Shown: positions 4,525 to 61,054 of the stretch, piece by piece
How the letters are laid out: each line of letters opens with the position of its first letter
Position numbering within the stretch: the stretch's first letter is position 1
Assembly: GCA_951406725.2 (NCBI GenBank)
Contig: OX597839.1
Location: 1,240,001-1,304,000, forward strand
Source: Octopus vulgaris
Taxonomy: Eukaryota
Direction of reading: 5' to 3'
Length of the DNA stretch: 64,000 nucleotides
Notes under the pieces: generated by a model
Told to the model about the DNA's origin: nothing
Seen by the model: the letters and a program-made list of their open reading frames with translations, nothing else
Database searches by the model: none
Program-made: the position numbers and the translations under genes

Positions 4525-4566
4525 CCTGTATCACAGTGATTTCATACTTACGTATTCATCAGCAGG
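4525..4566 (-). ncRNA. Type I hammerhead ribozyme (family A)
   Basis: Reverse complement of CCTG-CTGATGA-ATAC-GTAA-GTAT-GAAA-TCAC-T-GTGA-TA-CAGG. Confidence 0.85.
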
Positions 4567-4915: not shown

Positions 4916-4957
4916 CCTGCTGATGAATACGTAAGTATGAAATCACTGTGATACAGG
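4916..4957 (+). ncRNA. Type I hammerhead ribozyme (family A)
   Basis: Helix I CCTG/CAGG, CUGAUGA, helix II ATAC/GTAT with GUAA loop, GAAA, helix III TCAC/GTGA, AUA cleavage triplet. Confidence 0.85.
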
Positions 4958-5207
4958 TCTATATTTTTTAAATGTCTTACTTTGAAAAATTGCATTCGGT
5001 GGGATTAGTAATATTTTTGGTAGAAATGACTAATTGTCCCTCTTAGCGTGTGGCATGTATGTATAATGCCTTCTGGCATGTATGTATAATGCCCTCTATA
5101 TATAAATTTATATATATATATATATATACATACAGATAGAGTTTGATAGCTAGACAGGCAGTCAAATATATAGACAGATAGCTAGCTAGCTACCTAGATA
5201 GATAGAT

Positions 5208-6240: not shown

Positions 6241-6516
6241 TTTGATTACTGTAGATTAGAGCTGTTGTATTAAATTACCAAGTATTTCTTGAAATATCTG
6301 TTGCATACCATATACATATATATATATATATATATATATCTTTGCATGTAAGTATGTGTTTATATATGTATATATATGTGTGTATATATATATATTTATG
6401 TATATATACATGTGCATATGTATATATGTGTATATATGTATATATATATATATGTATATATATATGTATATATATATATGTATATATGTGTATATATAAT
6501 ATATATATATATATAT

Positions 6517-8058: not shown

Positions 8059-8123
8059 TTATATATATATATATGTATGTAGGCATGCATATATATATAT
8101 ATATATATATATATTCATACATA

Positions 8124-9147
8124 TTCAGGGTGGCCTAAAAGTCACTGAGGAATTGCAATATTTTAGAATTCTTTCAATTTTTAAAACTTTTTTCTGTTCT
8201 TTTCAGGGATTCCATGGACTACGTTCTGAAAATTAGTTATAGAAATGTATGGCACCGCACAGCACACCCAAGTGGTGAAACCGTTTTTCTACACAAGGTG
8301 CAGTCGGTTCAACAGCTGAAGCCTGAGAATTATGGATACAGGCGGTGGGAATCCAGAAATTGGCACGAAATGACCCAACTTTTACACAAATATTGATCAT
8401 GTCTGATGAAGTTCACTTTCATTTGATTGGGTTCATAAACAGTCAAAATTGCCTGGTTGGGGGAATATGAGAATCCAAGAGCAGAACATCAAAGAGAGCT
8501 TCATTCCATTAAATGTACAGTTTGGTGTGCAATTACAATGGATGAGATAATCGTGCTTTATTTATTTGAGGACGATGATAGGAATACTATCACTGTGACT
8601 GGTGAGAGGTACAGTTCCATGATGGAGAACTTTTTGTCAACGATCATTCAAAATAGGCCGGATATGTGATTCTATGAAGAAAGGCTAAGTGATCATAAAG
8701 CAAGAGAAACAATAAGATTGCTGAAACAATGTTTTGAGAAAGAATCATCCCTAGCTATTCCGATGACAACTGACCATCGCTTTCCCACGACTTGACCAGC
8801 AGTGAAATTTTCCTTTGAGGATACTGCAAGGAGTTGATTTATGCCAACAGACAAGAAACCCCGAGCAATCGAAGAAGAATATCCCTCGAGAGATCAGGAA
8901 ACTGGACCCTGAACTACAACTGACATGGAACATTTTTTGAAAAAAGTACTGGTGTGCGATGCTGAAAATGGAGGACATTAAAAAAGATGTCATACTTCAT
9001 ACGTAATGCAAAGGTGTGAAGAAAAGTGCTAATGCAAAGTAACCTAAATTGCCTTCTCTATGTTGAACTAAAATTTCATACACATGCTAGTTGAAATAAG
9101 GGAGTTATTAAATATTGAAACACTCGGTAACGTCTGGCCAACATGTA
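8124..9147 (+). mobile_element. Decayed Tc1/mariner-superfamily DNA transposon (rosa/DD41D-like motifs)
   Basis: MSDEVHFHL..NSQNC..ENP..LHSIKCTVWC..TVTGERY. Left end CAGGGTGGCC and a diverged inverted copy near 9120-9147. The left end is also duplicated at 13159-13280. Confidence 0.7.
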
Positions 9148-14547: not shown

Positions 14548-16455
14548 TAGTTTTACTTTTATAGTGTGCTTTCACTTCACTACCGAGCGCAGCTCTGTGT
14601 GCCTTGGGTATGTGCTGTGATTTGTTGTGATGCTCTGATGGTTATTGTATGGAAAGTGTTCTGCGTAGGATGTGTGCAGTGCCTAGTAGTGCAATTTTCT
14701 GTATGTTATATGTGTTTGTAAGTCCTGGTGTTTTTGTTATGTATTTGTCTGAATATTTTTTATCATGCCTAATACACCTACTATGATAGGAACTGTTTCT
14801 GTTTTTAGATTCCACATTCTGGTTACCTCTATTTCCAGGTCTTTGTATTTTGAAAGTTTCTCCACTTCTTTTAGAGACACGTTGTCATCTGCCGGTATTG
14901 ATACATCAATTAGAAAGCATTTTTTCTTCTTCATGATCCCTGACAACTATATCTGGTCTGTTGGCCTTAATTTCTCTATCTTTGTGTCTCGGCATATCCC
15001 AGAGTATGGTTGCTTTCTCGTTTTCTGTGACCTTTTCTGGTGTGTGCCTATACCATCTTTTTTCTGTTATAATTCCATAATGTTGGCATAGCTTCAAGTG
15101 TATGTAAGTTCCACCTCTGTCATGTCTGTGAATATATTCCTTCTTAGCCAGGACTGGGCAGCCAGAGATAATATGATTTATTGTTTCTTGTCCATCTCCA
15201 CATATTCTGCAGTTACTAGTTATATTTCTTTTCATTACATGTTTTTGGTAATTTCTGGTGGGGAGGCTTTGGTCTTGTGCTGCAATTAAACATCCCTCTG
15301 TCTCTGCTTTGAGTACTGAGCTTCTCAACCATTGCTTGGATTTTTCTTTGTCTATTTCTTTTGCGTTTAGTTTAGTGCAGTATTTACCATGAAGGGGCTT
15401 TTCTTGCCACCGTTTTATCATGGTTCGTTGCTGTTCTATTTTTAGTTTGGATTTCATTTGTTTTATAGCTTTTGTTACTTCTTCATCTTCTTCTTCTTCT
15501 TTTTCATATTTATTAGGTGGTATGATTTCTTGTTTGTATTTGTCAGCTTCCTTAAATACTGAGAACAGTTTTTTGTTTTGATCGTGTTTTGCCGCTATTT
15601 GTATCAGTTTTCCTTCCTTCTGAAGTAGATATTTTTGCAGTCCCATGGTGGTTATATTATAGTAGTTTTCCAGCTGTATAAGGCCTCTACCACCTTCTAT
15701 ACGTTGTATATATAGTCTTTCTATGTCAGATTTTGGGTGATGCATCCTAGATCCTGTCATTATTTTTCTTGTTTTCCTATCTATTTTGGTCAGTTCATTT
15801 AGTGTCCAGTTGAGGATATTGTAGTTGTAACTTATAACTGGGACAGCAAAAGTGTTAATACCTATTATCTTGTTTTTAGCATTGGGCTCTGTTTTTAGTA
15901 TTGATCTAACTCGTCTCTAATATTCATTTTTTATTTTCCCTTTCATTTGTGTGTGTTGTGTCTTATCTAGTTCATGGATTCCTAAATATTTGTAAGTTTG
16001 GCTTTGGTCTAATTCTTTTATTTCATTGGTTTTATCTAGTGTGATGCTGCTACTCTTAACTAGTTTTCCTCTTTTCAGGGTTACTTTGGCGCATTTTTCT
16101 AATCCAAATTTCATATCTATTTCTTTGGTAAATCCATGAACTGTCTTTAATAGTGTTTCCAGCTGTTTGTCATTTGCAGGGTATAGTTTTAGGTCATCCA
16201 TATATAAATGGTGGCTGATCGTTTTGCCGTAACATTTATATCCGCATCCAGTTCTATTTAGCAAATCAGATAGAGGTGACAGTGCCAAGCAGAAAAGGAA
16301 TGGAGAGAGCGTGTCTCCCTGGAATATTCCTCTTCTAATGGGGATGGCTTTGGTTTTCATGAGTCCCTCTTTTGTTTGGAGCTGTAGCACTGTTTGCCAT
16401 TTATTCATAGAGTGCCCTATGAATTTTATAATTGTTGGTGCTACTTTGTTAATGT
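14548..16455 (-). mobile_element. 5'-truncated R4/Dong-like non-LTR retrotransposon (RT + CCHC + restriction-like endonuclease)
   Basis: ORFs 15917-16408 (RGIFQGDTLSP, LYMDDLKL), 14906-15760 (GGRGL, CRICG..ETINHIISGC, RHD, RPDIV) and 14737-14946 (KLSKYKDL). Embedded in (TAA)n. Confidence 0.9.
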
Positions 16456-16480
16456 CTAGTGTTTCGGGCCATTATTATTA

Positions 16481-17672: not shown

Positions 17673-17859
17673 TGTAGGTGTGTGTTCTAGTACATTTGTG
17701 TGTGTGCGTGTGTGTGTGTGCGTATGTGTGTGTGTGTGTGTGTGCGCGCTTGCATGCCTGCAAGAAAAGGAGATGACACAGGAAAAAGAAAGCATTTGGT
17801 ATGAACTTTATAACCTTACAACCATTTCTACTGTACGCTGAAGAGAATGAAAACAGACA

Positions 17860-18210
17860 AACTCTTGAAATTCAAAAGACTATTGAACAGCGTCAACCCA
17901 AACATACAGTTCAAAATGGAATACAACCAAAAGGAGCTACCATTTTGGATATACTAATTTAAAAAATAAACCTAAAAATAGAAACAGGCGTATTTTACAA
18001 AACCACAGACGCCAAACAATATCTACTGTTTAATCCATGCCACCCAAGACACACCAAAACAAACATCCCCTTCAACCTTGCAAAAAGTATATGCACAATA
18101 GTGTCAGAAAAAATACCAGAGACTTTTGACTGTAAGAACTCAAAAACACCCTGATTGACAGACACTACTCAATTCAACACATAGAGGATGGAATCGGACG
18201 TGTAACACAA
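17860..18210 (+). mobile_element. Penelope-like RT thumb fragment
   Basis: LNSVNPNIQFKME..LPF.D..FYKTTD..YL.FNPCHP.HTK.NIPF, frameshifted. Confidence 0.75.
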
Positions 18211-18339
18211 ATCATTTTTGGTCACTGTTTTTGAACACCTGTAAAAAATTGGAAAAGTAAAAAATAAAACGGATAGGTTTGTTCCACATCAACTGAACGA
18301 GATTAAATTGATTGTATGCATGAGAATTTGAAAAAGAAG

Positions 18340-18727: not shown

Positions 18728-19299
18728 TATGTATATATGAAACAACCTAATATATATATATATATATTATTTGTTTATTGTTCTTTTACTTAGGGGCACA
18801 CTTAATAGTGGTGGTGCTGTTTCTGCGTAGTATATTTCTATATTATGTAGAGTGTACATATATACATGTGTGTGTATGCGTGTTTGTGTGTTTGTGTGTG
18901 TGTGTGTGTGTGTATGTGTGTGTGTGTGTGTGTGTGTGTAAAAAGAAACAATAACATGAAAAATAATACTTATGCTATGAACTTCATGCAGCTAAGACCT
19001 GTTTCTGCTATAACATGCAGTGGACTCTAGGCATTAAAATAAGAGTCCACTATATCTCATGGCACAAGCATTTATAAGCTAATGATCTTCATAATAACCC
19101 TTGATTTTCCTGTCATCTCTTTTGCTTATTACCGCTCTATACGTAACACTTGTTCTGGAACATATGTATATTGAATTCTATAACAGGTTATTATCTATGC
19201 AATATATATACGTGAAAAGAAGTTTGTTTCAAAATGTTTTTTTCCGAATTCTAGAAATACTGCTTTGCTTTTATGTTTACATGCTATATTCACTTTGGA

Positions 19300-20685
19300 G
19301 TATGTATTAATTACGTTTTCTCTGAATGCGATAATTTCCAGAGTTTCCTCTAGACAAAAATTGCATACCCGTGAAATTCCGTCATATGGTACATAATTTT
19401 TTATAATAGATCAATGGGTGGTATACTCCTCTCCATTCTTTTTGAGCCTCCAGGCGATGTTTGAGAGTGATTTGGAGTGTTTATATTCTTTATGCTTGGA
19501 GGACGATGTAAGATGGCTACGCAGATGATTTCCATGGTATTTCTGGTGCCACCGATGCGCGCATATTTCTGCGTACCTGCGTTCACATTTGTAAACCACA
19601 TTCTTTATCCTGCTGTTGTTGCTAAAACTGCATTCATCTTTAGTTCTGAAGTTACATGTATTATTATTTCTTCCGTTCTCGCAGCGGTGTTACTACTGGT
19701 GGTTACCCTTCCTCTTCGTCTTGCAATCCTGATTTGACTATCAATTGCGTGGTCTTGTTCAAACCCGTTTTTGATATTCGAGATCCTTTATTTCTTTTAT
19801 TTGCAAATATTCAATCTTCGTACATTGTGCTATTAGCTGCAGCTACTCCATATTTTCACTCGAGTTTTATTGTTTAGTTTTGTAATATCTAGTTTGTTTA
19901 TGTGGTATTCTTGATTGGAAAAGGTCTCGTATGCTAATTTTATATTATTGTTATATTTGGAAGAACTTGAGTGCTTTTCTAATGTTGCGAAAAATTCCTA
20001 AACTATTTTGGATTTAATTTGAGAATTGAAAATTGTGTTAAACTAAATAATTTCAACACTTATTTTCCATTTCTTTTAATATACCTATTGGGTTTGTTTG
20101 TGAATTTTGTTTCCCTGCTTCTATTGTTTTGTTATCATTATTTCTCCCGGCGTTTAACGGTGCCCTTCTTTCTAACTTTGGCTGCTCTTTCGTGAGTTTT
20201 GTTTTATATCTATCCTTCTTAGTGTTATGGTCCTTCTTTTGCCTTTTGACCCCTATTATATTTACTGTTTTTCTAGATTCTGGTACACTGTGGTTATTTA
20301 TATTTTTATCTCTATTATTGATAACGTTCTCTGGGTATCGTGCTTCCTTTGTCTTATTCTTGTATGTATACTATTCTATCCTTATATTCCACCCTAGCTA
20401 ATGCTGAGTTGTAATATATCCGGCGTTCATATAGAATATCTGTTCATCCGGGGATATTTTGCTTCTTGAGGTGATTCACAGTATATGTTCCGGATAGTTG
20501 AATCCTCATCTAACATATTTTAAATTCTCAGCTTATGGAGTTGTTTGAAATTTCCATCTTTAAGTCTAAGCTTAATGTTAAGGAATTTTACCACTCTATG
20601 ATTCTTTTCTATTTCAATTTCCAATCCAAGGTTCTTAAAGAATAAAAAAAAGCAACATTTTCTTGCTTCTTTCTATTTCTTCTTT
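19300..20685 (-). mobile_element. Decayed Penelope-like element (RT end + GIY-YIG)
   Basis: Minus-strand pieces VVYKC, IGGTRN and HSKSLSNIAWRLK, plus an FFKNLGLEIEIE..VKFLN RT remnant; many stops. Confidence 0.65.
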
Positions 20686-30679: not shown

Positions 30680-31113
30680 TATTGAATTTCTAAATCTCTC
30701 GTAGAGACATGTACGGTTGTGGGGCGATAGAATGGTTGTATAATGTCAATCTAACAAGAACGTGACAGTAGGGGGTACACCACCGCTGTATAGTCCTAGG
30801 AAGCATCGAACGCCTCCTGATGGCTTTGACACATTTTTCCCTGTGTCCTTATATACACTTACGAAGGGGAGACAAACACCCCCGGCTGCCGGAACTGCAT
30901 CCAGGGACACGTGTTTCAGGATCGTTGTCCTTCATCGGCCTAGAGTAGCAGACACCGGTCAGCCGGTGATATTTGCCTCGAATAGACTTCACTGAATATA
31001 GATATATACAAATACGAAGTCGAGACATCAGAAGGCGTTCGATGCTTCCTAGGGCTATACAGCGGTGGTGTACCCCCTACTGTCACGTTCTTGTTAGATT
31101 GACAGTATACAAC

Positions 31114-31120
<7 letters not shown>
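30680..31120. mobile_element. Inverted-repeat element (family E) with HHR in the spacer
   Basis: ~100-bp arms at 30728-30830 and 31019-31120; (TA)n flanks. Confidence 0.85.
30901..30943 (-). ncRNA. Minimal HHR motif with CCGAUGA core variant
   Basis: CTAGG-CCGATGA-AGGA-caacga-TCCT-GAAA-CACGTG-TC-CCTGG. Confidence 0.7.
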
Positions 31121-31174
<54 letters not shown>

Positions 31175-31272
31175 TCTATACATATACATATACATTTATA
31201 TCTATAGAAATAAATCTATACATATATACCTGTACATATAAATGTATACATATATATCTATATATATACATG

Positions 31273-31312
<40 letters not shown>

Positions 31313-31579
31313 CAATTAAGGACAACTACTTAATAAGGAAAACTTAACAAGAAATTGTCAGGTAGATAGCGTGAAAACCTCATAAGAGAAAAAATTTCGA
31401 AAATAATTATTTCTTATTGAACATATTAATTTATATATAGAGGGCATTATACATACATGCAAGAAGGCATTATACATACATGCCACACGCTAAGAGGGAC
31501 AATTAGTCATTTCTACCAAAAATATTACTAATCCCACCGAATGCAATTTTTCAAAGTAAGACATTTAAAAAAATATAGA

Positions 31580-31621
31580 CCTGTATCACAGTGATTTCAT
31601 ACTTACGTATTCATCAGCAGG
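31580..31621 (-). ncRNA. Type I hammerhead ribozyme (family A)
   Basis: Reverse complement of the intact 42-nt motif. Confidence 0.85.
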
Positions 31622-32157
31622 CCTGAATGTATTATAAATAAACAACGACCCTGCCCCGCTTAAGCCGATCAGCTAACTGATCAACATCAACGAAGCACAT
31701 GGGTGAGTTTACATATATTACATCCGGATAAATGGCAAACTTTTACGAATTGCATTTCGGGTGGGATTAGTAATATTTTTGGTAGAAATGACTAATTGTC
31801 CCTCTTAGCGTGTGGCATGTATGTATAATGCCTTCTGGCATGTATGTATAATGCCCTCTATATATAAATTAATATGTTCAATAAGAAATAATTATTTTCG
31901 AAATTTTTTCTCTTATGAGGTTTTCACGCTATCTACCTGACAATTTCTTGTTAAGTTTTCCTTATTAAGTAGTTGTCCTTAATTGCTAAATTTTTATTCC
32001 GAAAAAACTTTTCCTCTCCCGAAATGCAATTCGTAAAAGTTTGCCATTTATCCGGATGTAATATATGTAAACTCACCCATGTGCTTCGTTGATGTTGATC
32101 AGTTAGCTGATCGGCTTTAGCGGGGCAGGGTCGTTGTTTATTTATAATACATTCAGG

Positions 32158-32199
32158 CCTGCTGATGAATACGTAAGTATGAAATCACTGTGATACAGG
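32158..32199 (+). ncRNA. Type I hammerhead ribozyme (family A, copy 1)
   Basis: CCTG-CTGATGA-ATACGTAAGTAT-GAAA-TCACTGTGA-TA-CAGG. Confidence 0.88.
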
Positions 32200-32638
32200 T
32201 CTATATTTTTTTAAATGTCTTACTTTGAAAAATTGCATTCGGTGGGATTAGTAATATTTTTGGTAGAAATGACTAATTGTCCCTCTTAGCGTGTGGCATG
32301 TATGTATAATGCCTTCTGGCATGTATGTATAATGCCCGCTATATATAAATTAATATGTTCATTAAGAAATAATTATTTTCGAAATTTTTTCTCTTATGAG
32401 GTTTTCACGCTATCTACCTGACAATTTCTTGTTAAGTTTTCCTTATTAAGTAGTTGTCCTTAATTGCTAAATTTTTATTCCGAAAAAACTTTTCCTCTCC
32501 CGAAATGCAATTCGTAAAAGTTTGCCATTTATCCGGATGTAATATATGTAAACTCACCCATGTGCTTCGTTGATGTTGATCAGTTAGCTGATCGGCTTAA
32601 GCGGGGCAGGGTCGTTGTTTATTTATAATACATTCAGG

Positions 32639-32680
32639 CCTGCTGATGAATACGTAAGTATGAAATCACTGTGATACAGG
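32639..32680 (+). ncRNA. Type I hammerhead ribozyme (family A, copy 2)
   Basis: Identical motif. Confidence 0.88.
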
Positions 32681-33119
32681 TCTATATTTTTTTAAATGTC
32701 TTACTTTGAAAAATTGCATTCGGTGGGATTAGTAATATTTTTGGTAGAAATGACTAATTGTCCCTCTTAGCGTGTGGCATGTATGTATAATGCCTTCTGG
32801 CATGTATGTATAATGCCCTCTAAATATAAATTAATATGTTCAATAAGAAATAATTATTTTCGAAATTTTTTCTCTTATGAGGTTTTCACGCTATCTACCT
32901 GACAATTTCTTGTTAAGTTTTCCTTATTAAGTAGTTGTCCTTAATTGCTAAATTTTTATTCCGAAAAAACTTTTCCTCTCCCGAAATGCAATTCGTAAAA
33001 GTTTGCCATTTATCCGGATGTAATATATGTAAACTCACCCATGTGCTTCGTTGATGTTGATCAGTTAGCCGATCGGCTTAAGCGGGGCAGGGTCGTTGTT
33101 TATTTATAATACATTCAGG

Positions 33120-33161
33120 CCTGCTGATGAATACGTAAGTATGAAATCACTGTGATACAGG
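33120..33161 (+). ncRNA. Type I hammerhead ribozyme (family A, copy 3)
   Basis: Identical motif. Confidence 0.88.
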
Positions 33162-33600
33162 TCTATATTTTTTTAAATGTCTTACTTTGAAAAATTGCAT
33201 TCGGTGGGATTAGTAATATTTTTGGTAGAAATGACTAATTGTCCCTCTTAGCGTGTGGCATGTATGTATAATGCCTTCTGGCATGTATGTATAATGCCCG
33301 CTATATATAAATTAATATGTTCAATAAGAAATAATTATTTTCGAAATTTTTTCTCTTATGAGGTTTTCACGCTATCTACCTGACAATTTCTTGTTAAGTT
33401 TTCCTTATTAAGTAGTTGTCCTTAATTGCTAAATTTTTATTCCGAAAAAACTTTTCCTCTCCCGAAATGCAATTCGTAAAAGTTTGCCATTTATCCGGAT
33501 GTAATATATGTAAACTCACCCATGTGCTTCGTTGATGTTGATCAGTTAGCTGATCGGCTTAAGCGGGGCAGGGTCGTTGTTTATTTATAATACATTCAGG

Positions 33601-33642
33601 CCTGCTGATGAATACGTAAGTATGAAATCACTGTGATACAGG
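33601..33642 (+). ncRNA. Type I hammerhead ribozyme (family A, copy 4)
   Basis: Identical motif. Confidence 0.88.
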
Positions 33643-33782
33643 TCTATATTTTTTTAAATGTCTTACTTTGAAAAATTGCATTCGGTGGGATTAGTAATAT
33701 TTTTGGTAGAAATGACTAATTGTCCCTCTTAGCGTGTGGCATGTATGTATAATGCCTTCTGGCATGTATGTATAATGCCCTC

Positions 33783-33836
<54 letters not shown>

Positions 33837-35753: not shown

Positions 35754-35804
<51 letters not shown>

Positions 35805-35805
<1 letters not shown>

Positions 35806-37280
35806 GGGAAAGTGAAAAAAACGAAACTCGTCAATAAGACATTTTAGCAAAAAATGATGGATTTGTATAGCGATAGACAGAACGCTATTAATATTGTTTA
35901 AAAAAACGTTATATGATATAACGTCATAAGTAGGTAACAGAAAGAGTAGGGATATTAATAGTGAATGTTAAATATAAAGGAAATTAAAGTTTAAATTATA
36001 TATAATGATAGAGACTACTTATAAGCGAATGAAGGCAGATAACCCTTATTTAATCCCCTATTATAGATCTAAAAGTAAATATAACACCTTCAAAAGTAAT
36101 TACGCTATGAATACTAGTAAAAATATTTGGTTAATAATCCCTTACGGGAGACAAATTAAATCTAATCTCCCACTGCTGTTTCGTCAAGCTATTGCTAGGA
36201 ATTTTCCAAACAATTCTAGATATTACTCTATAATTAATTCACATAAGGTTAGGATAGGTTTTTCAAACACAAAATATCTCTTGCAAATTATATCTTCTCA
36301 TAATAACAAACTGTTAAATATTAATACATTTACTAATACTAACATTAATTTAGCTAATACCATCCAACCCTCTAGAAATATTAATAACAAGGTTATTGTA
36401 TCTGAAGTCAATTCCAATAGAATTAAGTTTATGTCAAGTAACTCTAAGGTTAAAAATTCTATATACCAGTGTATAATCAGTACTCGTAATAAAGTACGAT
36501 TTTACATTGGAAGCATATCGTTAGAGTTATCTAAAAGAATTTCTATCCATTACTCAACATTTAGGGATAGAAATAAACGGAATAGTACCGGTCTCAGCAA
36601 ACTGATTTGGGATTTAAAAGATCACAATGAACAATTTCATTTAGAATGGTTGACACTCTCAATTTCGATACCATATGACAAAGGCGAGAAATTCTGTCTT
36701 CTCTGCAATTCTGAGCTTCTAAAAATACTCTAGTAAACACGGTTATAGAGCGAGCATACAGATGTAAGCATTGGCAAAAACATACATTTAGTGCATATAA
36801 GTAGTCTCTATCATTATATATAATTTAAACTTTAATTTCCATTATATTTAACATTCACTATTAATATCCCTACTCTTTCTGTTAGCTACTTATGACGTTA
36901 TATCATAAAACGTTTTTGTAAACAATATTAATAGCGTTCTGTCTATCGCTATACAAATCCATAATTTTTTTGCTAAAATGGCTTATTGACGAGTTTCGTT
37001 TTTTTCACTTTCCCGAAGAGAAGATTGCATTGTTTATACCATTTATTCTTTTGAATAGTATCAGTGGAATTTTCGAAAAATGTGTCGAAAGTAAAAATAT
37101 TTGTTTACACCTGCGTTAACTCCATTTTTTATTCATATTATTCAAATATTCAACGTAAACACGAAGTTTCTACCTTTATAAACAAGGAGTTACAACACCT
37201 TTACTTGTGAGATTTTTGCTGCCCTGGTAACTATTTATTTATTTTTCCGTGTTAATTGTTAACAAGGTAAAAATACACTC

Positions 37281-37290
<10 letters not shown>
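35805..37290 (+). mobile_element. Penelope-like element with inverted terminal copy
   Basis: 35805-36020 is the reverse complement of ~36800-37015. It encloses a GIY-YIG ORF and is flanked by (TA)n. Confidence 0.85.
36005..36733 (+). pseudogene. GIY-YIG endonuclease of a Penelope-like element (no RT)
   Basis: NSIYQC..FYIGS..KRISIH..STGLSKLIWDLKD..LEW..PY..CLLC; RCKH follows after the stop. Confidence 0.85.
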
Positions 37291-41539: not shown

Positions 41540-42875
41540 TCTCCCTTCTTTGAAATTTTGCTTCCCTAAGTTCAGTGCCTTTTCGCTTGGGAATTATTTA
41601 TGAATGTTGAGTCTGTTTACGCTTTCTGTTTCTGCTCCTTTTAGGCCCAATTTATTTTGATGCTGGCACATTGGACATATGATAAAACACTTCCACTGGA
41701 ATTTCCTTCACTTCTTCTGCATGTCTGATTTTTAATTGATTTAGGTGTCGTTTACCTTTTATTAAATACACCATGTTTCCATTCTTTTAGTCTTGCCATC
41801 CTGCCAACTTTCTTTACCATTCTTGTATACTTTGAAAGGGGCTTACACTATGAAATTCCTGTAATATCTGTTTCTGTAGTGCGGGTGGTACTACCACTTT
41901 TCGTGCGTAAATTAATACATTGTCGAAGAATGAAAAATGGTTCGCATTCGTGTTTCCCTTTTGTTTAGTTATCAAGGTTTCTTTCATTTTTAAGACGTAT
42001 TTGCCCTCTGCTGTTTTACTTTTCATATCTTGTACAGTCACTGGCAACTCCTGAATGACATTACGCATAACGTTTTTAACTTCCTATTCTGATTTAATGC
42101 GGCTATCACCATATCTTCTAGCGGTTCCGCATTCTCCGGAATTCGCCCAGATAAACAATCCGCATGGCTAATTTTCTTAGAAGGAATGTATTCCATCTTA
42201 AAGTTGTAATTTAACAATATTGTACCCCTACATATTAATCTGTTAGCTGTATGAGTAGCAATACCTGTCTTCGATCCGAAAATTGATAGTAAAGATCGGT
42301 GGTCTGTCTAGAGCCGAAAACGTCTACCGTGGAGAAGTCTACGAAATTTCTTCACGGCAAAAATGATCGCTAGAGTTTTATTCTCTTTCTGACTGTAGTT
42401 TTTTTTCTGCTGCAATCAGAGCACGTGAGGCAAGAACTACCACCTTCATATTACCGACTTTATACTTGCGTAAAAAAACTGATCCTACACCGTATTCAGA
42501 AGCGGCAGAAGCTACAACAAACGCCGCTGCAGGATCGAAATGAGCCAGCAACAAAATATCCTCAAACGCCTTTTGACACTTATTTGACCAATTCCATTTG
42601 ACGTCTTTCTTTAGAAAATTATAAAGTGGAGCTCTCAATTCATACATGTTTGGTATGTAATTTGGTAGGCCAAGAAAAGCTTGTAATGTCCCGATGTTAG
42701 TTGGAGGAAGCTTATTTTTTAATTGCGTCTGCCTTCGACGGGTCAGGTCGTCCTCCATTTTTATCTATAATTTGTCCTAAATTGCAAATTGACAGTCCAC
42801 CAACATCGCATCCAGAACCTGCTGAAATATTGCAGGTGCAACTTTCAGACCAAATGGCAACCACCGAATAAAATA
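41540..42875 (-). mobile_element. Decayed Ty3/Gypsy pol (RT, RNase H, integrase N-terminus)
   Basis: LPFGLKVAPAIFQ; LQAFLGL; WNWSNKCQKAFE; LAHFDP..ASAASEYGVG; TDHRSL; VVVPPALQKQILQEFH. Confidence 0.85.
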
Positions 42876-45800
42876 ACCACAGCCACCACCGCCACCGCCA
42901 ACAACGCCACCGCCACCACCATATCCCTCAACACCACCATAGCCACCGCCATCACCTCCAACACCACCACTATAGCCACCGACCACACCTCCACAACCAC
43001 CATAGCCACATTAACAACCGCCACCCTCACCACAGCCATTACCGCCACCGCCGACAAAGCCACCGCCCTAACCACATCCACCACATCCACCACCACCACA
43101 ATAGCCACCGTCAACACCGCCACCATCACCACAGCAACCACGCCACCGCCAACAACGCCACCGCCACCACCACATCCACCACCACCACCAGAGCCAACGC
43201 CCCAACCTCCACCACCACCACCATAGCCACCGTCACCACCGCCACCATCACCGCAGCCACCACCGCCACCGCCAACAACGCCACCACATCCACCACCGTC
43301 AACACCGCCACTATCACCACAGCCACCACCGCCACCGCCAACAACGCCACCGCCATCGACACCTCCACCACCACACCATAGCCACCGCCACCGCCCCACC
43401 ACCATAGCCACCACCACATAGCCACCGTCACCACCCCACCATCACCGCAGCCACCACCGCCACCGCCAACAACGCCACCACCACCACCACATCCACCACC
43501 ACAACCATAACCAACGCCCCAACCTCCACCACCATCTTGGCAACCGTCACCACCGCCACTATCACCACAGCCACCACCGCCACCGCCAACAACGCCACCG
43601 CCATCGCCACCCACCCACCACCACAACCATAGCCAACGCCCCCACCTCCACAACCACCATAGCCACCGTCACCACCGCCACCAACAAAAAAGCCACCACC
43701 GCCACAGCCAACAACGCCACCGCCAGCACCACGTCAACTTCACTACCATAACCACCGCCCCCAACTCCACCATAACCACAGCCTCCACCGCCACCGCCAA
43801 CACCCCACCGCCACCACCACCATAGTCACATTCACCACTGCCAACCTCACCACAGCCATTACCGCCACCGCCGACAACGCCACCGCCCCAACCACATCCA
43901 CCACATCCACCACCACCACCACAGCCGTCTCCCCCACCTCCACCACCACCATAGCCACCGTCAACACAGCCACCATCACAACAGCCACCACAGCCACCGC
44001 CAACAACGCCACCGCCAACACAACATCCACCACCACCACCACAGCCAACGCCCCCACCTCCACCACCAACATAGCCAACGTCACCACCGCCACCATCAAC
44101 GCAGCCACCACCGCCATCGCCAACAACGATACCACCACATCCACCACCACAACAATAACCACCGCCCCAACCTCCACCACCATCTTGGCCACCGTCACCA
44201 CCGCCACTACCACCACAGCCACCACCGCCACCGTCAATAACTCCACAACCATCGACACCTCCATCACCACCATATTCACCGTCACCACCGCCACCATCAC
44301 CGCAGCCATCACACACACCGCCAACAACGACACCGCCACCACCATAGCCACCACCACCACCATAGCCACCGTCACCACCACCACCATCACCACACTCACC
44401 ACCGCCACCGCCAACAACGCCACCCTCACCACCACATTCACCACCACCACCACCATAGCCACCGCCGCCACTTCCATTACCGCAATAGCCACCGTCACCG
44501 CCGCCACCGCCAACAACGCCACCGCCACCAACACCACAGGCACCACCGCCACCGCCAACAACGCCACCGCCACCACCACATCCACCACCACCACCACCAT
44601 AGCCACCGCGCCCTACTTCACCACCACCATAGCCACCGCCCCACCTCCACCACCACCATAGCAACCGTCACCACCGTCACCACAGCGACCACTGCCACCG
44701 CCAACAACGCCACAGTCACCACCACATCCACTAACACCACCATAGCCATCGTCCCCACCTCCACCACCACCATTGGCACCGTCATCCCCGACACCGTCAC
44801 GACATCACCACCACCACCGCCAACAACGCCACCGCCACCACCACTTCCACCACAACCATCATAGCCACCACCCCCACCTCCACCACCACCATAGCCACCG
44901 TCACCACCACCACCATCACCACAGCCACCACCGCCACCGCCAACAACGCCTCCGCCACCACGACATCCACCACCACCACCATAGCCACCGCCCACACCTC
45001 CACCACCACCAGAGCCACCGTCACCACCTCCACCATTCATCACAACCACCACCGCCACCACCAACAACGCCACCACCGCCACCACCACATCCACCACCAC
45101 CTCCAACACCACCATAGCCCCCACCTCCAACACCACCATAGCCACCATCACCACCGCCACCATCACCACAGCCACCACCGCCACCGCCAACAACGCCACC
45201 GCCACCACCACATCCACCAGCGACACCATAGCCACCGCCTCCACCTCCACCACCACCATAGCCACCGTCACCACCGCCACTATCACCACAGCCACCACCG
45301 CCACCGCCAACAACGCCACCGCCACCACCACATCCACTATCACCACCATAGCCACCGCCCCCACCGCCCCCACCTCCACCACCACCACCATAGCCACCGT
45401 CAACAACGCCGTCAACACCGCCAACAACGCCACCACCGCCACCACATCCACCACTATCACCATAGCCACCGCCCCCACCTCCACCACCACCATAGCCAAC
45501 GTCACCACCGCCACCATCACCACAGCCACCGTCACCACCGCCAACAACGCCACCACCTCCACCAAACACCACAGCCACCACCGCCACCGCCAACAACGCC
45601 ACCGCAACCACCATATCCACCACCAACACCATAGCCACCGCCCCCACCTCGACCACCACCATAGCCACCATCACCACGGCCACCACCGCCACCACTAACA
45701 ACGCCACCACCAACACCACATCCACCACCACCATTGCCACCGCCCCCCCTCCACTACCACCATAGCCACCGTCACTACCGCCACCATCACCACAGCCACC

Positions 45801-48800
45801 ACCGCCACCGCCAACAACGCCACCGCCGCCACCACATACACCATGGTGGCTATGGTGATGTTGGCTATGGTGATGGTGGCGGTGGTGACGGTGGCTATGT
45901 TTGTGGTGGAGGTGGGGGCGGTGGCTATGGAGGTGGAGGTGGATGTGGTGATGGCGCCCCCACCTCCACCACCACCATAGCCACCGACACCACAGCCAAC
46001 ACAACCACCACCAACACGCCAACAACGCCACCGCCACCACCACATCCACCACCACCACCATAGCCACCGCCCCCACCTCCACCACCACCATATCCAATGT
46101 CACCACCGCCACTATCACCACAGCCACCACCGCCACCGCCAACACGCAACCGCCACCACCACATCCACCGCCCCCACCTCCACCACCACCAAAGCCACCG
46201 TCACCACCGCCACCATCACCACAGCCAACACAGCCACCACCAACACGCCACCGCCACAACCACATCCACCCACCACCATAGCCACCGCCCCCAGCTCCAC
46301 CACAACCATAGCCACCGTCACCACCGCCACCATCACCATAGCCACCGTCACCACCGCCACCATCACCACATCCACCACCGCCACCGCAAACAACGCCACC
46401 GCCGCCACCACATCCACCACCACCACCATAGCTACCGCCCCCACCTCCACCACCACCATAGCCAACGTCACCACCGCCACCATCACCACAGCCACCACCG
46501 CCACCACCAACAACGCCACCGCCGCCACCACATCCACCATCACCACATCCACCATCACCACCATAGGCACCGCCCCCACCTCCACCACCACAGTAGCCAC
46601 CGTCACCACCACCACCATCACCACGGCCACCACCGCCACCGCCAACAACGCAAGCACCACCACCACATCACCACCACCACCATAGCCACCGCCCCCACCT
46701 CCACCACCACCATATCCAATGTCACCACCGCCACTATCACCACAGCCACCACCGCCACCGCCAACACGCAACCGCCACCACCACATCCACCGCCCCCACC
46801 TCCACCACCACCATAGCCACCGTCACCACCGCCACCATCACCACAGCCAACACAGCCACCACCAACACGCCACCGCCACAACCACATCCACCTCCACCTC
46901 CATAGCCACCGCCCCCAGCTCCACCACAACCATAGCTACCGTCACCACCGCCACCACCATAGCCACCATAGCCACCGTCACCACCGCCACCATCACCACA
47001 GCCACCACCGCCACCGCCAACAACGCCATCGCCACCACCACCACCACCACCACCACCATAGCGACCGCCCCCACCTCCACCACCACCATAGCCACCGTCA
47101 CCACCGCCATCATCACCACAGCCAACACAGCCACCACCAACACGCCACCGCCACAACCACATCCACCTCCACCACCATAGCCACCGACCCCACCTCCACC
47201 ACGACCATAGTCACCGTCACCACCGCCACCATCACCATAGACACCGTCACCACCGCCACCATCACCACAGCCACAACCACATCCACCAACACCACCATAG
47301 CCACCGCCTCCATCCCCACCACCACCATAGTCACCGTCACCACCACCATCATCACCACAGCCACCACCGTTACCGCCAACAACGCCACCGCCGCCACCAC
47401 ATCCATCACCACCACCATAGCCATCGCCCCCACCTCCACCAGCACCATAGCCACGGTCACCACCGCCACCTTCACCATAGCCACTGTCACCACCACCACC
47501 ATCACCACGGCCACCACCGCCACCGCCAACAACGCCACCGCCACCACCACATCCACCACCACCACCATAGCCACCGCCCCCACCTCCACCACCACCATAT
47601 CCAATGTCACCACCGCCACCATCACCACAGCCACCACCGCCACCGCCAACACGCCACCGCCACCACCACCATAGTCACCGCCGCCCCCACCTCCACCACC
47701 ACCATAGCCACCGTCACCACCGCCACCATCACCACAGCCAACACAGCCACCACCAACACGCCACCGCCACAACCACATCCACCTCCACCTCCATAGCCAC
47801 CGCCCCCAGCTCCACCACCACCATAGCCACCGTCACCACCGCCACCATCACCATAGCCACCGTCACCACCGCCACCATCACCACAGCCACCACCGCCACC
47901 GCCAACTACGCCATCGCCACCACCACATCCACCACCACCACCATAGCGACCGCCCCCACCTCCACCACCACCATAGCCACCGTCACCACCGCCATCATCA
48001 CCACAGCCAACACAGCCACCACCAACACGCCTCCGCCACAACCACATCCACCTCCACCACCATAGCCACCGACCCCACCTCCACCACAACCATAGTCACC
48101 GTCACCACCGCCACCATCACCATAGCCACCGTCACCACCGCCACCACCGCCACCACAGCCACAGCCACAGCCACCGCCTCCATCCCCACCACCACCATAG
48201 TCACCGTCACCACCACCATCATCACCACAGCCACCACCGTTACCGCCAACAACGCCACCGCCGCCACCACATCCATCACCACCACCATAGCCATCGCCCA
48301 CACCTCCACCAGCACCATAGCCACCGTCACCACCGCCACCTTCACCATAGCCACTGTCACCACCGCCACCATAACCACAGCCACCACCGCCACCGCCAAC
48401 AACGCCACCGCCACCACCACCACCATAGCCACCGCCCCAACCTACCACCACCATAGCCACCGTTACCACCGCCACCTTCACCATAGCCACCGTCACCACC
48501 GCCACCATCACCACAGCCACCACCGCCACCGCCAACAACGCCACCGCCACCACCACATCCACCACCACCATCATAGCCACCGCCCCCACCTCCACCACCA
48601 CCATAGCCACCGTAGCCACCGTCACCACCGCCACCATCACCACAGCCGTCACCGCCACCGCCAACAACGCCACCGCCACCACCACATCCACCACCACCAC
48701 TATAGCCACCGCCCCCACCGCCACCTTCACCATAGCCACCGTCACCACCGCCACCATCACCACAGCCACCACCTCCACCGCCAACAACGCCACCGCCACA

Positions 48801-51800
48801 CCCACATACACAACCACCATAGCCACCGTCACCACCGCCACCATCACCACAGCCACCACCGCCACCGCCAACAACTCCACGGCTACCACCACACCCACCA
48901 CCAACACCATTGCCACCGCCCCCACCTCCACCTCCACCATAGCCACCGTCACCACCGCCACCATCACCACAGCCACCACCGCCACCGCCAAGAACGCCAC
49001 CGCCACCACCACCACCACCACCTCCACCACTGTCACCACCGCCACCACCACCATAGCCACCGTTACCACCGCCACCATCACAACAGCCACCACCAGCACC
49101 GCCAAGAACGCCAACGTCACCACCACATCCACCACCACCACCATAGCCACCGTCACCACCGCCACCTTCACCATAGCCACCGTCACCACCGCCACCATCA
49201 CCACAGCCACCCGCCACCGCCAACAACGCGCCACCGCCACCACCACATCCACCACCACCACCACCGTCACCACCGCCACCATCACCACAGCCACCACCGC
49301 CACCACCAACAACGCCACCGCCACCACCACATCCACCACCACCACCATAGCCACCGCCACCACCACATCCACCACCACCACCATAGCCACCGCCCCCACC
49401 TCCACCACCACCATAGCCACCGTCACCACCGCCACCTTCACCATAGCCACCGTCACCACCGTCACCATCACCACAGCCACCACCGCCACCGCCAAAAACG
49501 CCACCGCCACCACCACATCCACCACCACCACCATAGCCACCGCCGCCACCTAAACCACCACCATAGCCACCGTCACCACCGCCACCATCACCACAGCCAC
49601 CACCGCCACCGCCAACAACACCACCGCCACCACCACATCCACCACCACCACCATAGCCACCGCCCCCACCGCCACCATCACCACAGCCACCACCGCCGCC
49701 GCCAAGAACGCCACCGCCACCACCACCACCACCTCCACCACTGTCACCACCACCACCATCACCACAGCCACCACCGCCACCACCACATCCACCACCACCA
49801 TTATAGCCACCGCCCCCACCTCCACCACCACCATAGCCACCGTCACCACCGCCACCATCACCACAGCCACCACCGCCACCGCCAAGAACGCCACCGCCAC
49901 CACCACCACCACCACCACCACCACCCACCACCTCCACCACTGTCACCACCGCCACCATCACCACAGCCACCACCGCCACCGCCAACAACGCCACCGCCAC
50001 CACCACATCCACCACCACCATCATAGCCACCGCCCCCACCTCCACCACCACCATAGCCACCGTTACCACCGCCACCATCACCACATCCACCACCGCCACC
50101 GCCAAGAACGCCACCGTCACCACCACATCCACCACCACCACCATAGCCACCGTCACCACCGCCACCTTCACAATAGCCACCGTCACCACCGCCACCATCA
50201 CCACAACCACCACCGACACCGCCAACAACGCCTCCGCCACCACCGCCAACAACGCCACCGCCACCACCACATCCACCAACACCACCATAGCCACCGCCCC
50301 CAACTCCACCACCACCATAGCCACCGTCACCACCGGGACCATCACCGCAGCCACCACCCCCACCGCCAACAACGCCTCCACCACCACCACATCCACCACC
50401 TCCACCACCACCTCCACCACCGTCTCCACTTCCACCATCACCACAGCCACCACCGCCACCGCCAAGAACGCCTTCGCTACCACCATATCCACCACCACCA
50501 TAGCCACCGCCCCCACCTCAACAAGCACCATTGCCACCGTCACCACCGCCACCATCACAACAGCCACCACCGCCACCGCCAACAACGCCACCGCCTCCAC
50601 CACATCCACCACCACCACCATAGCCACCGCCCCCACCTCAACCACCACCATAGCCACCGTTACCACCGTCACCATCTCCACAGCCAACAGCGCCACCCCC
50701 ATCATGCCACCGCCACCACCAGAGCCACTACCACATCCACCACCACCACCATTACCACCGCCCCCACCTCCACCACCACCATAGCCACCGTCACCACCGC
50801 CACCTTCACCATGGACACCGTCACCACCGCCACCATCACTACAGCCACCACTGCCACCATCACCACAGCCACCACCGCCACCGCCAACAACGCCACCGCC
50901 ACCACCACATCCACCACCACCACCATAGCCACCGCCCCCACCTCCACCTCCACCATAGCCACCGTCACCACCGCCACCATCACCACAGCCACCACCGCCA
51001 CCGCCAAGAACGCCACCGCCACCACCACCACCACCACCACCACCATAGCCACCGTCACCACCACCACCACCACCACCACCATAGCCACCGTCACCACCGC
51101 CACCTTCACTGTAGCCACCGTCACCACCGCCACCATCACCACAACCACCACCGCCACCGCCAACATAGCCTCCGCCACCACCGCCAACAACGCCACCGCA
51201 ACCACCACATCCACCACCACCACCATAGCCAACGCCCCCACCTCCACCACCAGTATAGCCACCGTCACCAACGCCACCATCACCACAGCCACCACCCCCA
51301 CCGCCAACAACGCCTCCACCACCACCACATCCACCACCTCCACCACCACCTCCACCACCGTCACCACTTTCACCGTCACCACATCCACCACCGCCACCGC
51401 CAACAACGCCTCCGCCACCACCACCTCCACCACCACCATTGCCACCGTCACCACCGCCACCATCACAACATCCACCACCGCCACCGCCAACAACGCCACC
51501 GCCTCCACCACATCCACCACCACCACCATAGCCACCGCCCCCACCTCCACCACCACCATAGCCACCGTTACCACCGTCACCATCTCCACAGCCAACAGCG
51601 CCACCCCCATCATGCCACCGCCACCACCAGAGCCACTACCACATCCACCACCACCACCATTGCCACCACCCCCACCTCCACCACCACCATAGCCACCGTC
51701 ACCACCGCCACCTTCACCATAGCCACCGTCACCACCGCCACCATCACCACAGCCACCACCGCCACCATCACCACAGCCACCACCGCCACCGCCAACAACG

Positions 51801-54800
51801 CCACCGCCACCACCACATCCGCCACCACCACCATAGCCACCGCCCCCACCTCCACCTCCACCATAGCCACCGTCACCACCGCCACTATCACCACAGCCAC
51901 CACCGCCACCGCCAAGAACGCCACCGCCACCACCACCACCACCACCACCACCACCATAGCCACCGTCACCACCACCACCACCACCACCACCATAGCCACC
52001 GTCACCACCGCCACCTTCACTGTAGCCACCGTCACCACCGCCACCATCACCACAACCACCACCGCCACCGCCAACATAGCCTCCGCCACCACCGCCAACA
52101 ACGCCACCGCAACCACCACATCCACCACCACCACCATAGCCAACGCCCCCACCTCCACCACCACCATAGCCACCGTCACCACCGCCACCATCACCACAGC
52201 CACCACCCCCACCGCCAACAACGCCTCCACCACCACCACATCCACCACCTCCACCACCACCTCCACCACCGTCACCACTTTCACCGTCACCACATCCACC
52301 ACCGCCACCGCCAACAACGCCTCCGCCACCACCACCTCCACCACCACAATTGCCACCGTCACCACCGCCACCATCACAACAGCCACCACCGCCAACAACG
52401 CCACCGCCTCCACCACATCCACCACCACCACCATAGCCACCGCCCCCACCTCCACCACCACCATAGCCACCGTTACCACCGTCACCATCTCCGCAGCCAA
52501 CAGCGCCACCCCCATCATGCCACCGCCACCACCAGAGCCACTACCACATCCACCACCACCACCATTGCCACCGCCCCCACCTCCACCACCACCATAGCCA
52601 CCGTCACCACCGCCACCTTCACCATAGCCACCGTCACCACCGCCACCATCACCACATCCACCACCGCCACCATCACCACAGCCACCACCACCACCGCCAC
52701 CGCCAACAACGCCACCGCCACCACCACATCCACCACCACCACCATAGCCACCGCCCCCACCTCCACCTCGACCATAGCCACCGTCACCACCGCCACTATC
52801 ACCACAGCCACCACCGCCACCGCCAAGAACGCCACCGCCACCACCACCACCACCACCATAGCCACCGTCACCACCGCCACCTTCACCATAGCCACCGTCA
52901 CCACAGCCACCACCCCCACCGCCAACAACGCCTCCACCACCACCACATCCACCACCTACACCACCACCTCCACCACCGTCACCACTTCCACCATCACCAC
53001 AGCCACCACCGCCACCGCCAACAACGCCTCCGCCACCACCACCTCCACCACCACCATTGCCACCGTCACCACCGCCACCATCACAACAGCCACCACCGCC
53101 ACTGCCATCAACGCCACCGCCTCCACCACATCCACCACCACCACCATAACCACCGCCCCCCTCCACCACCACCATAGCCACCGTTACCACCGTCACCATC
53201 TCCACAGCCACCAGCGCCACCCCCAACTACGCCACCGCCACCACCACAACCACTACCACAGCCACCACCACACCCACCACCACCACCATTGTCACCGCCC
53301 CCACCTCCAGCACCACCATAGCCACCGTCACCGCCGCCACCATCACCACAGCCACCACCCCCACCGCCAACATCGCCTCCACCACCACCACATCCACCAC
53401 CTCCACCACCACCTCCACCACCGTCACCACTTTCACCACCACCACACCCACCACCACCACCATTGCCACCGCCCCCACCTCCACCACCACCATTGCCACC
53501 GTCACCACCGCCACCATCACAACAGCCACCACCGCCACTGCCAACAACGCCACCGCCTCCACCACATCCACCACCACCACCATTGCCACCGCACCCACCT
53601 CCACCACTACCATAGCCACCGTCACCACCGCCACCTTTACCATAGCCACCGTCACCACCGCCACCATCACTACAGCCACCACCACCACCACATCCACCAC
53701 CACCACTATAGCCACTGTCACCACCGCCACCATCACCACAGCCACCATCACCACAGCCACCACCGCCACCTCCAACAACGCCACCGCCACCACCACATCC
53801 ACCACCACCACCATAGACACCGCCCCCACCTCCACCACCACCATAGCCACCGTCACCACCGCCACCATCACCACAGCCACCACCCCCACCGCCAACATCG
53901 CCTCCACCACCACCACATCCACCACCTCCACCACCACCTCCACCACCGTCACCACTTTCACCACCACCACACCCACCACCACCACCATTGCCACCGCCCC
54001 CACCTCCACCACCACCATTGCCACCGTCACCACCGCCACCATCACAACAGCCACCACCGCCACTGCCAACAACGCCACCGCCTCCACCACATCCACCACC
54101 ACCACCATTGCCACCGCACCCACCTCCACCACTACCATAGCCACCGTCACCACCGCCACCTTTACCATAGCCACCGTCACCACCGCCACCATCACTACAG
54201 CCACCACCACCACCACATCCACCACCACCACTATAGCCACTGTCACCACCGCCACCATCACCACAGCCACCATCACCACAGCCACCACCGCCACCGCCAA
54301 CAACGCCACCGCCACCACCACATCCACCACCACCACCATAGACACCGCCCCACCTCCACTACCACCATAGCTACCGTCACCACCGCCACCATCACCACAG
54401 CCACCACCGCCACCGCCAACAACTCCACCACCACCACACCCACCACCACCACCATAGCCACCGCTTCCACCTCCACCACCTCCATAGCCACCGTCACCAC
54501 CCCCACCTTCACCATAGCCACCGTCACCACCGCCACCATCACCACAGCCACCACCGCCACCGCCAAAAACGCCACCGCCACCGCCAAAAACGCCACCGCC
54601 ATCACCACATCCACCATAGCCACCGCCTGCCACCTAAACCACCACCGTAGCCACCGCCACCATCACCACAGCCACCACCGCCACCGCCAACAACGCCACC
54701 GCCACCACCACATCCACCACCACCACCATAGCCACCGCCCCCCGCCACCACCATCACCACAGCCACCACCGCCACCGCCAACAACGCCTCCACCACCACC

Positions 54801-55575
54801 ACATCCCCCACCTCCACCACCACTTCCACCACCGTCACCACTGCCACCATCACCACACCCACCACCGCCACCGCCAAGAACGCCACCGCCACCACCACAT
54901 CCACCACCACCACCATAGCCACCGTCACCACCGCCACCTTCACCATAGCCACCGTCACCACAGCCACCACCCCCACCGCCACCTCCACCACCGTCACCAC
55001 TTCCACCATCACCACAGCCACCACCGCCACCACCACCACCGTCACCACATCCACCACCACCATAGCCACCGCCCCCACCTCCACCACCACCATTGCCACC
55101 GTCACCACCGCCACCATCACAACAGCCACCACCGCCACCGCCAACAACGCCACCGCCTCCACCACATCCACCACCACCACCATAGCCACCGCCCCCACCT
55201 CCACCACCACCATAGCCACCGTTACCACCGTCACCATCTCCACAGCCTCCAGCGCCACCCCCAACAACGCCACCGCCACCACCACAGCCACTACCACAGC
55301 CACCACCACATCCACCACCACCACCATAGCCACCGCCCCCACCTCCACCACCACCATAGCCACCGTCACCACCGCCACCTTCACCATAGCCACCGTCACC
55401 ACCGCCACCATCACTACAGCCACCACCGTCACCATCACTACAGCCACCACCGCCAACGCCAACAACGCCACCGCCACCACCACATCCACCTACCACTATA
55501 GCCACTGTCACCACCTCCACCATCACCACAGGCACAACCACCACACCCACCACCGCCACCGCTTCAACCGTCACC
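42876..55575. repeat. ~12.7-kb GC-rich complex (ACC/GCC)-based satellite
   Basis: Recurring ~110-120-bp module with higher-order copies ~905-908 bp apart (50700, 51608, 52513). It accounts for the Gly-, Val-, Thr- and Pro/His-rich ORF calls. Confidence 0.95.
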
Positions 55576-56844: not shown

Positions 56845-57368
56845 GGTGCTGAAATGTTGCTGGCTATGGTGGCGGTGGCGATGCTGGTGGTTGTGGCGGT
56901 GGCGGTGGCGTTGTTGGCGGTGGCGTTGTTGGAGGTGGTAGTGGTGGTGGTGGCGGTGGTTGTGGCGGCGGCGGCGTTGTTGGCGGTGGCGTTGGTGGCG
57001 TTGGTGGCGGTGGTGGCGGTGGTGGTGGTGGCGGTGGTGGTGGTTGTGGTGGTGGTGGCGGTGGTGGCGGTGGTGGCGATGGCGTTGGTGGTGATGGAGG
57101 TAGTGGTGGTTGTGGTGGTGGTGGCGGTGGTGGTGGCGGCGCCGGTGGCTGTGGTGGCGGTGGCTGTTGTGGTGGTGGTGGTGGTGGTGGTGGCGGTGGT
57201 GGTGGCGGTGGTGGTGATGGCGGTGGTTGTGGTGGTGGCGGTAGCTGTTGTGGTGGTGGTGGTGGTGGTGGTGGTGGTGGCGGCGGCGGTGGCTGTGGTG
57301 GCGGTGGCTGTGGTGGCGGCGGCTGTTGTGGTGGTGGTGGTGGTGGTGGTGGCGGTGGTGGCGGTGGA
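56845..57368. repeat. (GGT/GGC)n low-complexity repeat, opposite orientation to the large satellite
   Basis: Read directly. Confidence 0.9.

Positions 57369-60995: not shown

Positions 60996-61054
<59 letters not shown>

Follow-up and report, generated by a model that had tools for sequence, protein, structure and literature searches.

In the genome of Octopus vulgaris, a 481-bp tandem repeat at positions 31309-33790 of the window (the whole stretch of 64,000 nucleotides analysed, positions 1,240,001 to 1,304,000 of contig OX597839.1) fits, as far as its sequence can tell, the definition of a non-LTR retrozyme, and is neither a Penelope-like element (PLE) nor the ordinary pseudo-LTR (pLTR) of such an element. 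The array and the inverted copy at its left edge are the two arms of a single insertion. The balance of evidence leans slightly towards reading this locus as one insertion of a retrozyme with self-cutting RNA, copied from a predicted circle by a PLE enzyme acting in trans, and, jointly with such copying, towards regarding the repeat as a young, dispersed, protein-free non-LTR retrozyme family. The retrozyme class and its link to PLEs have already been published, and the 481-nt octopus family is an added member.

Between 31748 and 33790, a period of 481 was detected by Tandem Repeats Finder (4.2 copies, 99% matches), and the three internal full units of the array differ from one another at 1-4 positions. 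The inverted copy at 31309-31761 is 99-100% complementary to the array and about 28 nt short of a full unit. Both the tandem 481-bp units and the inverted copy of the original prediction are therefore borne out, except that the latter, taken there for a unit in its own right, is a second arm of the same insertion, of 453 nt. The features are the following, with the unit counted as 32229-32709.

31119-31308: left flank, rich in (TA)n, left over from the target microsatellite
31309-31761, minus strand: inverted arm, 453 nt, covering unit positions 271-481 followed by 1-242, 5'-truncated, its 3' end being the long one (End B, 31309)
31577-31624, minus strand: inverted-arm hammerhead (type I), with cleavage predicted after 31584
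31748-31761: junction between the arms, exact overlap of 2 nt
31760-33790, plus strand: forward arm, 4.2 head-to-tail 481-bp units, 5'-truncated
32155-32202, plus strand: first forward-arm hammerhead (type I), with cleavage predicted after 32195
32636-32683, plus strand: second forward-arm hammerhead (type I), with cleavage predicted after 32676
33117-33164, plus strand: third forward-arm hammerhead (type I), with cleavage predicted after 33157
33598-33645, plus strand: fourth forward-arm hammerhead (type I), with cleavage predicted after 33638
32677-33157, plus strand: predicted 481-nt monomer, cut to cut (folding)
32196-32676 and 33158-33638, plus strand: two further predicted monomers
33778-33790, plus strand: 3' end of the forward arm, the short end (End A), CCCTCTATATATA
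33791-33836: right (TA)n flank
4247-4697: second insertion, inverted arm to End B
4696-5113: second insertion, forward arm to End A

The element is non-coding, has no LTR pair and is low in GC (33% in the unit, the retrozyme threshold for metazoan non-LTR types being below 45%). As had been anticipated, no open reading frame of at least 100 aa lies inside the array, and one 125-aa frame, consisting mostly of TA flank, overlaps its left edge. The type I hammerhead recurs in at least two consecutive tandem units, with four copies in the forward arm and one in the inverted arm; the CTGATGA cores stand at 32162, 32643, 33124 and 33605 (plus strand) and at 31617 (minus strand), and the sequence is identical in all five, in accordance with the claim of one intact, invariant ribozyme of this anatomy per unit. 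Unit positions 3-14 and 271-284 form a 13-nt inverted repeat that is close to perfect, and it is within this repeat that the arms meet at 31748-31761. At 4247-5113 the same family and sub-haplotype has a second insertion, with one hammerhead per arm and (TA)n on both sides; neither this insertion nor the two fixed ends of the arms figured in the original prediction.

The ribozyme consists of a helix I of 6-7 bp, a helix II of 4 bp with a GUAA cap, the GAAA element, an AUA cleavage site and a palindromic helix III (A15.1-U16.1 plus 3 bp, with a 3-nt loop), the predicted cut after unit position 448 corresponding to window position 32195, exactly where it had been placed beforehand. The suggested Rfam check turned out negative, Rfam giving no match at the gathering score in the window and no hammerhead being present among the 25 matches at E<=10; the full motif was met in 0 of 20,000 shuffled units. 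The helix sizes (helix II of 4 bp, helix I of 6-7 bp, no extra base) place the ribozyme in the canonical class, contrary to the supposed likeness to the minimal hammerheads of PLEs, for which a helix II of 7-8 bp, a helix I of 4-5 bp and an extra base between 9 and 10.1 are described in PMC4209133. In a set of 14 distinct ribozyme versions, hand-picked from the motif scan of the fetched loci and from a sister locus (L208), 96.7% of the 210 cells were paired, as against at most 39% in slid controls, and two-sided changes occurred at 8 of the 15 pairs, a level reached by 0 of 500 shuffles. The fair test is that of helix I, because the scan demanded helix II and the start of helix III and left helix I unselected; here, two-sided changes were found at five of the seven pairs, while helix III did not vary among the versions. 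The compensatory pairs in these diverged relatives argue that the ribozyme is under selection.

Pair 10.1-11.1 is A-U in the array at 31309-33790, G-U in most young copies and G-C in the older subfamilies, the window ribozyme being thus devoid of the usual G10.1-C11.1 pair. For the lone ribozyme, an inactive fold is predicted 2.4 kcal/mol below the active one, and these two features, along with the eight of nine Xenopus retrozyme dimers reported as uncleaved in vitro by Li, Clavereau and Pollet (2026, bioRxiv 10.64898/2026.07.22.740005), count against self-cleavage. The double hammerhead is predicted at -31.1 kcal/mol versus -24.2 kcal/mol for two separate folds, and cleavage, as modelled, would probably proceed best in the double form. 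The cut monomer is predicted to fold at -135.6 kcal/mol (z = -8.0 versus shuffles), with helix I joining both of its ends. In one unit of locus L040 (G000:C14:46973208-46975472), loop 2 of the ribozyme carries a 13-nt insertion similar to the longer helix II found in an older subfamily.

The copy number was assessed genome-wide, as had been proposed, in 2.8 Gb and 227 contigs. The 21-nt half of the window ribozyme gave 482 exact matches and a 20-nt motif common to the sister families gave 1,538, with 0 for both reversed controls; family loci are present on most of the large contigs. The loci read were 109 distinct ones from three sets: 40 loci comprising the 38 best-scoring and the two of the window, a choice that favours long arrays; the full 44 loci to which the first 100 motif matches on contig C1 belong, two of these loci overlapping the first set; and 27 sister loci. 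Arms on both strands were observed at 30 of the 40 top-scoring loci, 27 of the 44 position-sampled ones (one of them complex) and 15 of the 27 sister loci. Two detected ribozymes in one arm were seen at only nine of the 44 position-sampled loci, so that most copies, lacking at least two ribozymes per arm, would be dead ends. Full units diverge by 0.24% within a locus (108 pairs) versus 1.28% between loci (3,633 pairs). The longest locus (L172 with L173, G000:C1:64639632-64655252) is a 15.6-kb insertion of 31 units and an inverted arm, with short and long ends and (TA)n flanks, in which one variant is shared by all 32 segments covering its site. Sister subfamilies with units of about 460-500 bp, identity down to about 69% and extensions of helix II were noticed at L208:3890-4480, L207 and L038:2128-3081, and the first look at sister retrozyme subfamilies returned 2,764 candidates. 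No paper on an octopus retrozyme was found in the literature, and the family may be listed in Repbase, Dfam or supplementary files, including the family and ribozyme files of Craig; the giant squid genome paper gives 235 hammerhead 1 matches, with no analysis of them in the part concerned.

The arms of the family loci face outward; their starting points are scattered, and each ends either at End A (short), near unit position 120, or at End B (long), near 243 and about 122 nt beyond the short site. A short end was paired with a long one in 62 of the 63 classifiable two-armed loci (30 of 30 in the first set, 23 in the C1 set and nine in the sister set), the exception being L185, with two long ends, which abuts a sister fragment; beyond these 63, eight two-armed loci have an unclassified end and one is complex. 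The homologous ends are kept in the sister families at about 69% identity. Such strict pairing of a short with a long end implies two start sites tied to the two strands of the target. Flanks of (TA)n on both sides were found at 35 of 40, 28 of 44 (C1) and 16 of 27 (sister) loci, and L044, the sole non-TA site inspected, has a target duplication of 10-13 nt. The overlap at the arm junction averages 2.0 nt in 25 clean junctions versus 0.76 nt by chance, extra or unassigned bases being present at 15 of the 40 junctions. Taken together, the inverted 5'-truncated copy, the partial tandem, the tail at one end and the (TA)n target amount, at the level of sequence, to an insertion footprint of PLE type; the one-end tail and the inverted truncated copy are given as PLE hallmarks in PMC8557442, and for a lizard PLE reverse transcription was reported in vitro to start at two internal sites, with both strands being extended (PMC11167929).

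The genome contains thousands of PLE fragments and at least two families with intact frames. The first is a 781-aa Neptune-like family, with 16 intact frames among the 20 loci fetched, a tail of about 40 nt and short plus long ends in both of the two-armed copies; the second, a 778-aa family with the DKT motif of the Hydra clade, has a tail of about 150 nt and short plus long ends in all three two-armed copies. The long tail, the TA target and the long helix I suggest, as a first guess, a Hydra-clade-like PLE as the helper. Mobilisation in trans by a PLE, as originally proposed, is supported by the footprint and the intact PLE frames in the genome, but lacks a convincing sequence link to an autonomous PLE: no convincing terminal sequence was shared with the two main PLE families or with 36 downstream regions of other PLE fragments. 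A likeness of the unit to the Neptune-like pLTR (75 AT-rich columns, score 53, 0 of 300 shuffles) was set aside, since it is missing from the sister unit (30 versus 30.8) and out of register with the ends, and a resemblance to the Hydra-like tail lacked significance (60 of 300 shuffles). Loci L179, L189 and L235, lying near PLE fragments, turn their own outer end, 270-580 nt away, towards these fragments and were rejected as joined copies, being separate insertions. As a side observation, the copies of the Neptune-like 781-aa family at L099-L115 are very young, with many intact frames and a U3-A8 minimal hammerhead, and carry upstream a coding-like stretch in another frame that ends near a T-run, which suggests a frameshift.

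That the units might be the ordinary pseudo-LTR of some unsampled autonomous PLE, with the loci as its truncated copies, is improbable. Each feature of the insertions is PLE-like, and about 109 loci were read of perhaps several hundred, in a genome rich in PLE fragments; however, another unit stands upstream of each unit, up to 31 times, and none of the 109 loci is contiguous with a PLE ORF (RT plus GIY-YIG), which speaks against an ordinary pLTR and for the retrozyme initially proposed. Neither was any unit homology found beside 70 PLE loci (50 GIY-YIG, 20 Hydra-like), apart from a separate sister insertion in L076. A plain minisatellite or an assembly artefact with a ribozyme-like motif arising by chance is very improbable: the silence of Rfam would agree with it, while the compensatory pairs, the result of the shuffled units, the substitutions private to single units and the stereotyped ends on many chromosomes oppose it. 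Two other deep runs, moreover, contain the head-to-tail joint, in 6 and 7 contigs respectively; such a joint is identical in a circle and in a tandem.

The harder choice concerns the template, for which a circle is somewhat better than even. Under the favoured reading, transcription would run on the ribozyme strand, the RNA would undergo one self-cut in each 481-nt unit, probably with the double hammerhead as the most effective form, and the monomer would be closed into a circle by a host ligase; a PLE-like enzyme supplied in trans would nick both target strands in a TA microsatellite, one strand would prime internally at End A and the other at End B, the circle would be copied through 0 to 31 turns, and the two cDNA ends would be joined via short microhomology. 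Ten locus-private variants are fixed in at least three copies including both arms, and units of the same arm are no more alike than those of opposite arms (13 versus 14, with 3 ties, p = 0.83, in 30 loci of 0.2-0.6% divergence, at which power is low; 5.2% versus 4.5% in 15 older loci, a noisy comparison). Indels at the cut site are 0 in 130 segments, and arm starts near the cut number 2 of 80 versus 1.8 expected. The shared haplotype across arms and the scarless cut site fit reverse transcription that rolls round a circle, the mechanism put forward in PMC4209133 and PMC7229834, and the cut linear monomer was discarded as a template for want of any truncation pile-up or indels at the cut. On the other hand, variants are distributed in a mosaic fashion at 12 sites, spread over 9 of the 58 loci analysed; among these are the window array, where T110G alternates T,G,T,G along the units, and the 31-unit array with its repeated variant patterns. 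One monomer circle is insufficient to explain this, and circles of multimers, a mixture of linear templates or subsequent exchange in DNA would be needed. A considerable possibility, though one that falls short of even, is therefore that the PLE template is the uncut linear multimer transcript of a source array, that arrays grow later by unequal exchange or conversion, and that the ribozyme has another or later role. It would account for the mosaic and periodic variants (L031, L036, the window locus and the 31-unit array); a uniform source array would also give a seamless cut site and shared haplotypes; for the lizard PLE, uncut RNA is described as the dominant substrate, ribozyme mutants still being inserted (PMC11167929); and local amplification by unequal crossover is favoured by Li et al. 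(2026). It is less easily reconciled with the equal likeness of units within and between arms, with arrays of 5-8 units nearly free of singleton changes, and with at least two ribozymes in both arms at three loci; from a linear template, the unit number of a product cannot exceed that of its source.

A more detailed version of copying from a circle is offered only speculatively, and we regard it as rather unlikely to hold in full: the locus would be the fossil of a twin-primed rolling-circle event, in which a pair of PLE enzymes opened both TA strands and started 122 nt apart on the ribozyme-closed circle, going on for up to 31 turns (15 kb), with host A-to-I editing of the RNA, some of it at bases within the ribozyme, as a possible restraint. 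If true, it would provide genomic evidence for copying of a circle, a step that for animal retrozymes and PLEs has so far been no more than a proposal; the literature consulted leaves open both the way in which animal retrozymes move and the function of the hammerhead in PLEs. The family supplies a young, uniform template with mapped start sites beside two intact candidate enzymes in the same genome, which opens the question of circle versus linear template to the published in vitro assay.

Transcription was approached through sequencing runs, none of which is recorded as RNA and six of which were guessed to be RNA, from other animals, perhaps of other species, with no matched DNA. Three of them showed A>G changes on the ribozyme strand at more places than T>C changes (X1, 15 versus 2; X2, 22 versus 2; X3, 8 versus 2), X1 and X2 coming from one study; no A>G excess was seen in the guessed-RNA runs X4, X8 and X12, and two deep DNA-like runs were balanced (3 versus 4 and 4 versus 3). 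Among the X2 sites listed, 14 of 17 are at or below 0.25% in both deep runs, two of them lying inside the ribozyme, and 10 of a set of 13 A>G sites have no G in about 190-230 genomic segments, one of these being a DNA variant in the deep runs. These counts give hints of sense-strand transcription with A-to-I editing.

The octopus family resembles the metazoan non-LTR retrozymes of PMC7229834 in its low-GC non-coding tandem with one type I hammerhead of canonical size per unit, in the strongly self-paired monomer, in the autonomous PLEs alongside and in the proposed circle with a PLE helper. The unit of 481 nt is longer than the 170-400 nt given there for invertebrate retrozymes, so that its having been called longer than most animal retrozymes stands against that source, but falls within the 51-972 bp reported by Li et al. 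(2026). The two-arm, two-end footprint links the octopus family to the PLE machinery, unlike what is described in PMC7229834, the main text of which contains neither cephalopod or octopus nor the words 'inverted' or 'microsatellite'; conversely, cleavage and circles have been demonstrated for the retrozymes of that paper, whereas the octopus family is known from sequence and prediction. With Li et al. (2026) the definition (two or more units in succession that carry a type I hammerhead) and the dependence on PLEs are shared; however, the link there is pLTR sequence homology in Xenopus, none having been found for the octopus family, and in the account available no mollusc is sampled and DNA-level growth of arrays is favoured. 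Partial tandems, an inverted 5'-truncated copy, a one-end tail, (TA)n targets and a hammerhead upstream of two internal RT start sites are features shared with the Hydra and Neptune PLEs (PMC8557442, PMC11167929), from which the octopus family differs by the lack of an ORF, by up to 31 full units and by a tail of about 122 nt instead of the usual PLE 30-40 nt. As in the newt and axolotl satellite hammerheads (PMC7229834), the short helix III is palindromic and suited to double-hammerhead cleavage, and the weak pair at the foot of helix II is likewise present in HHR_Amex2; the octopus helix III is longer, with 4 bp counting 15.1-16.1, and its motifs number hundreds as compared with about 120,000 in those satellites.

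Other elements were noted in the window, among them the PLE remnants that had been predicted there. The segment 24984-26477 belongs to an unrelated family with a unit of about 491 bp, a hammerhead whose helix II is long and two arms arranged in the same way between (TA)n tracts, with no sequence match to the 481-bp unit. A fragment of the 778-aa Hydra-like PLE family (17,256 first-look candidates) occupies 35803-37287, with a GIY-YIG frame at 35978-36730, an inverted arm and a hammerhead-like motif with a CCGAAGA core at 37013. Directly left of the array, a small inverted-arm element at 30727-31121, with a hammerhead-like motif of CCGAUGA core at 30938 on the minus strand, is probably a PLE terminal remnant. 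Broken LINE-type RT, two PLE and one LTR-type RNase H fragments are scattered over 6396-8134, 14906-16471, 17856-18213, 19255-19626, 42378-42764 and 60995-61951. Finally, a 12.5-kb degenerate CCA-rich minisatellite of 65% GC and strong skew extends over 42876-55575, and a 500-nt copy of it on the opposite strand lies 1.3 kb downstream, at 56867-57367.
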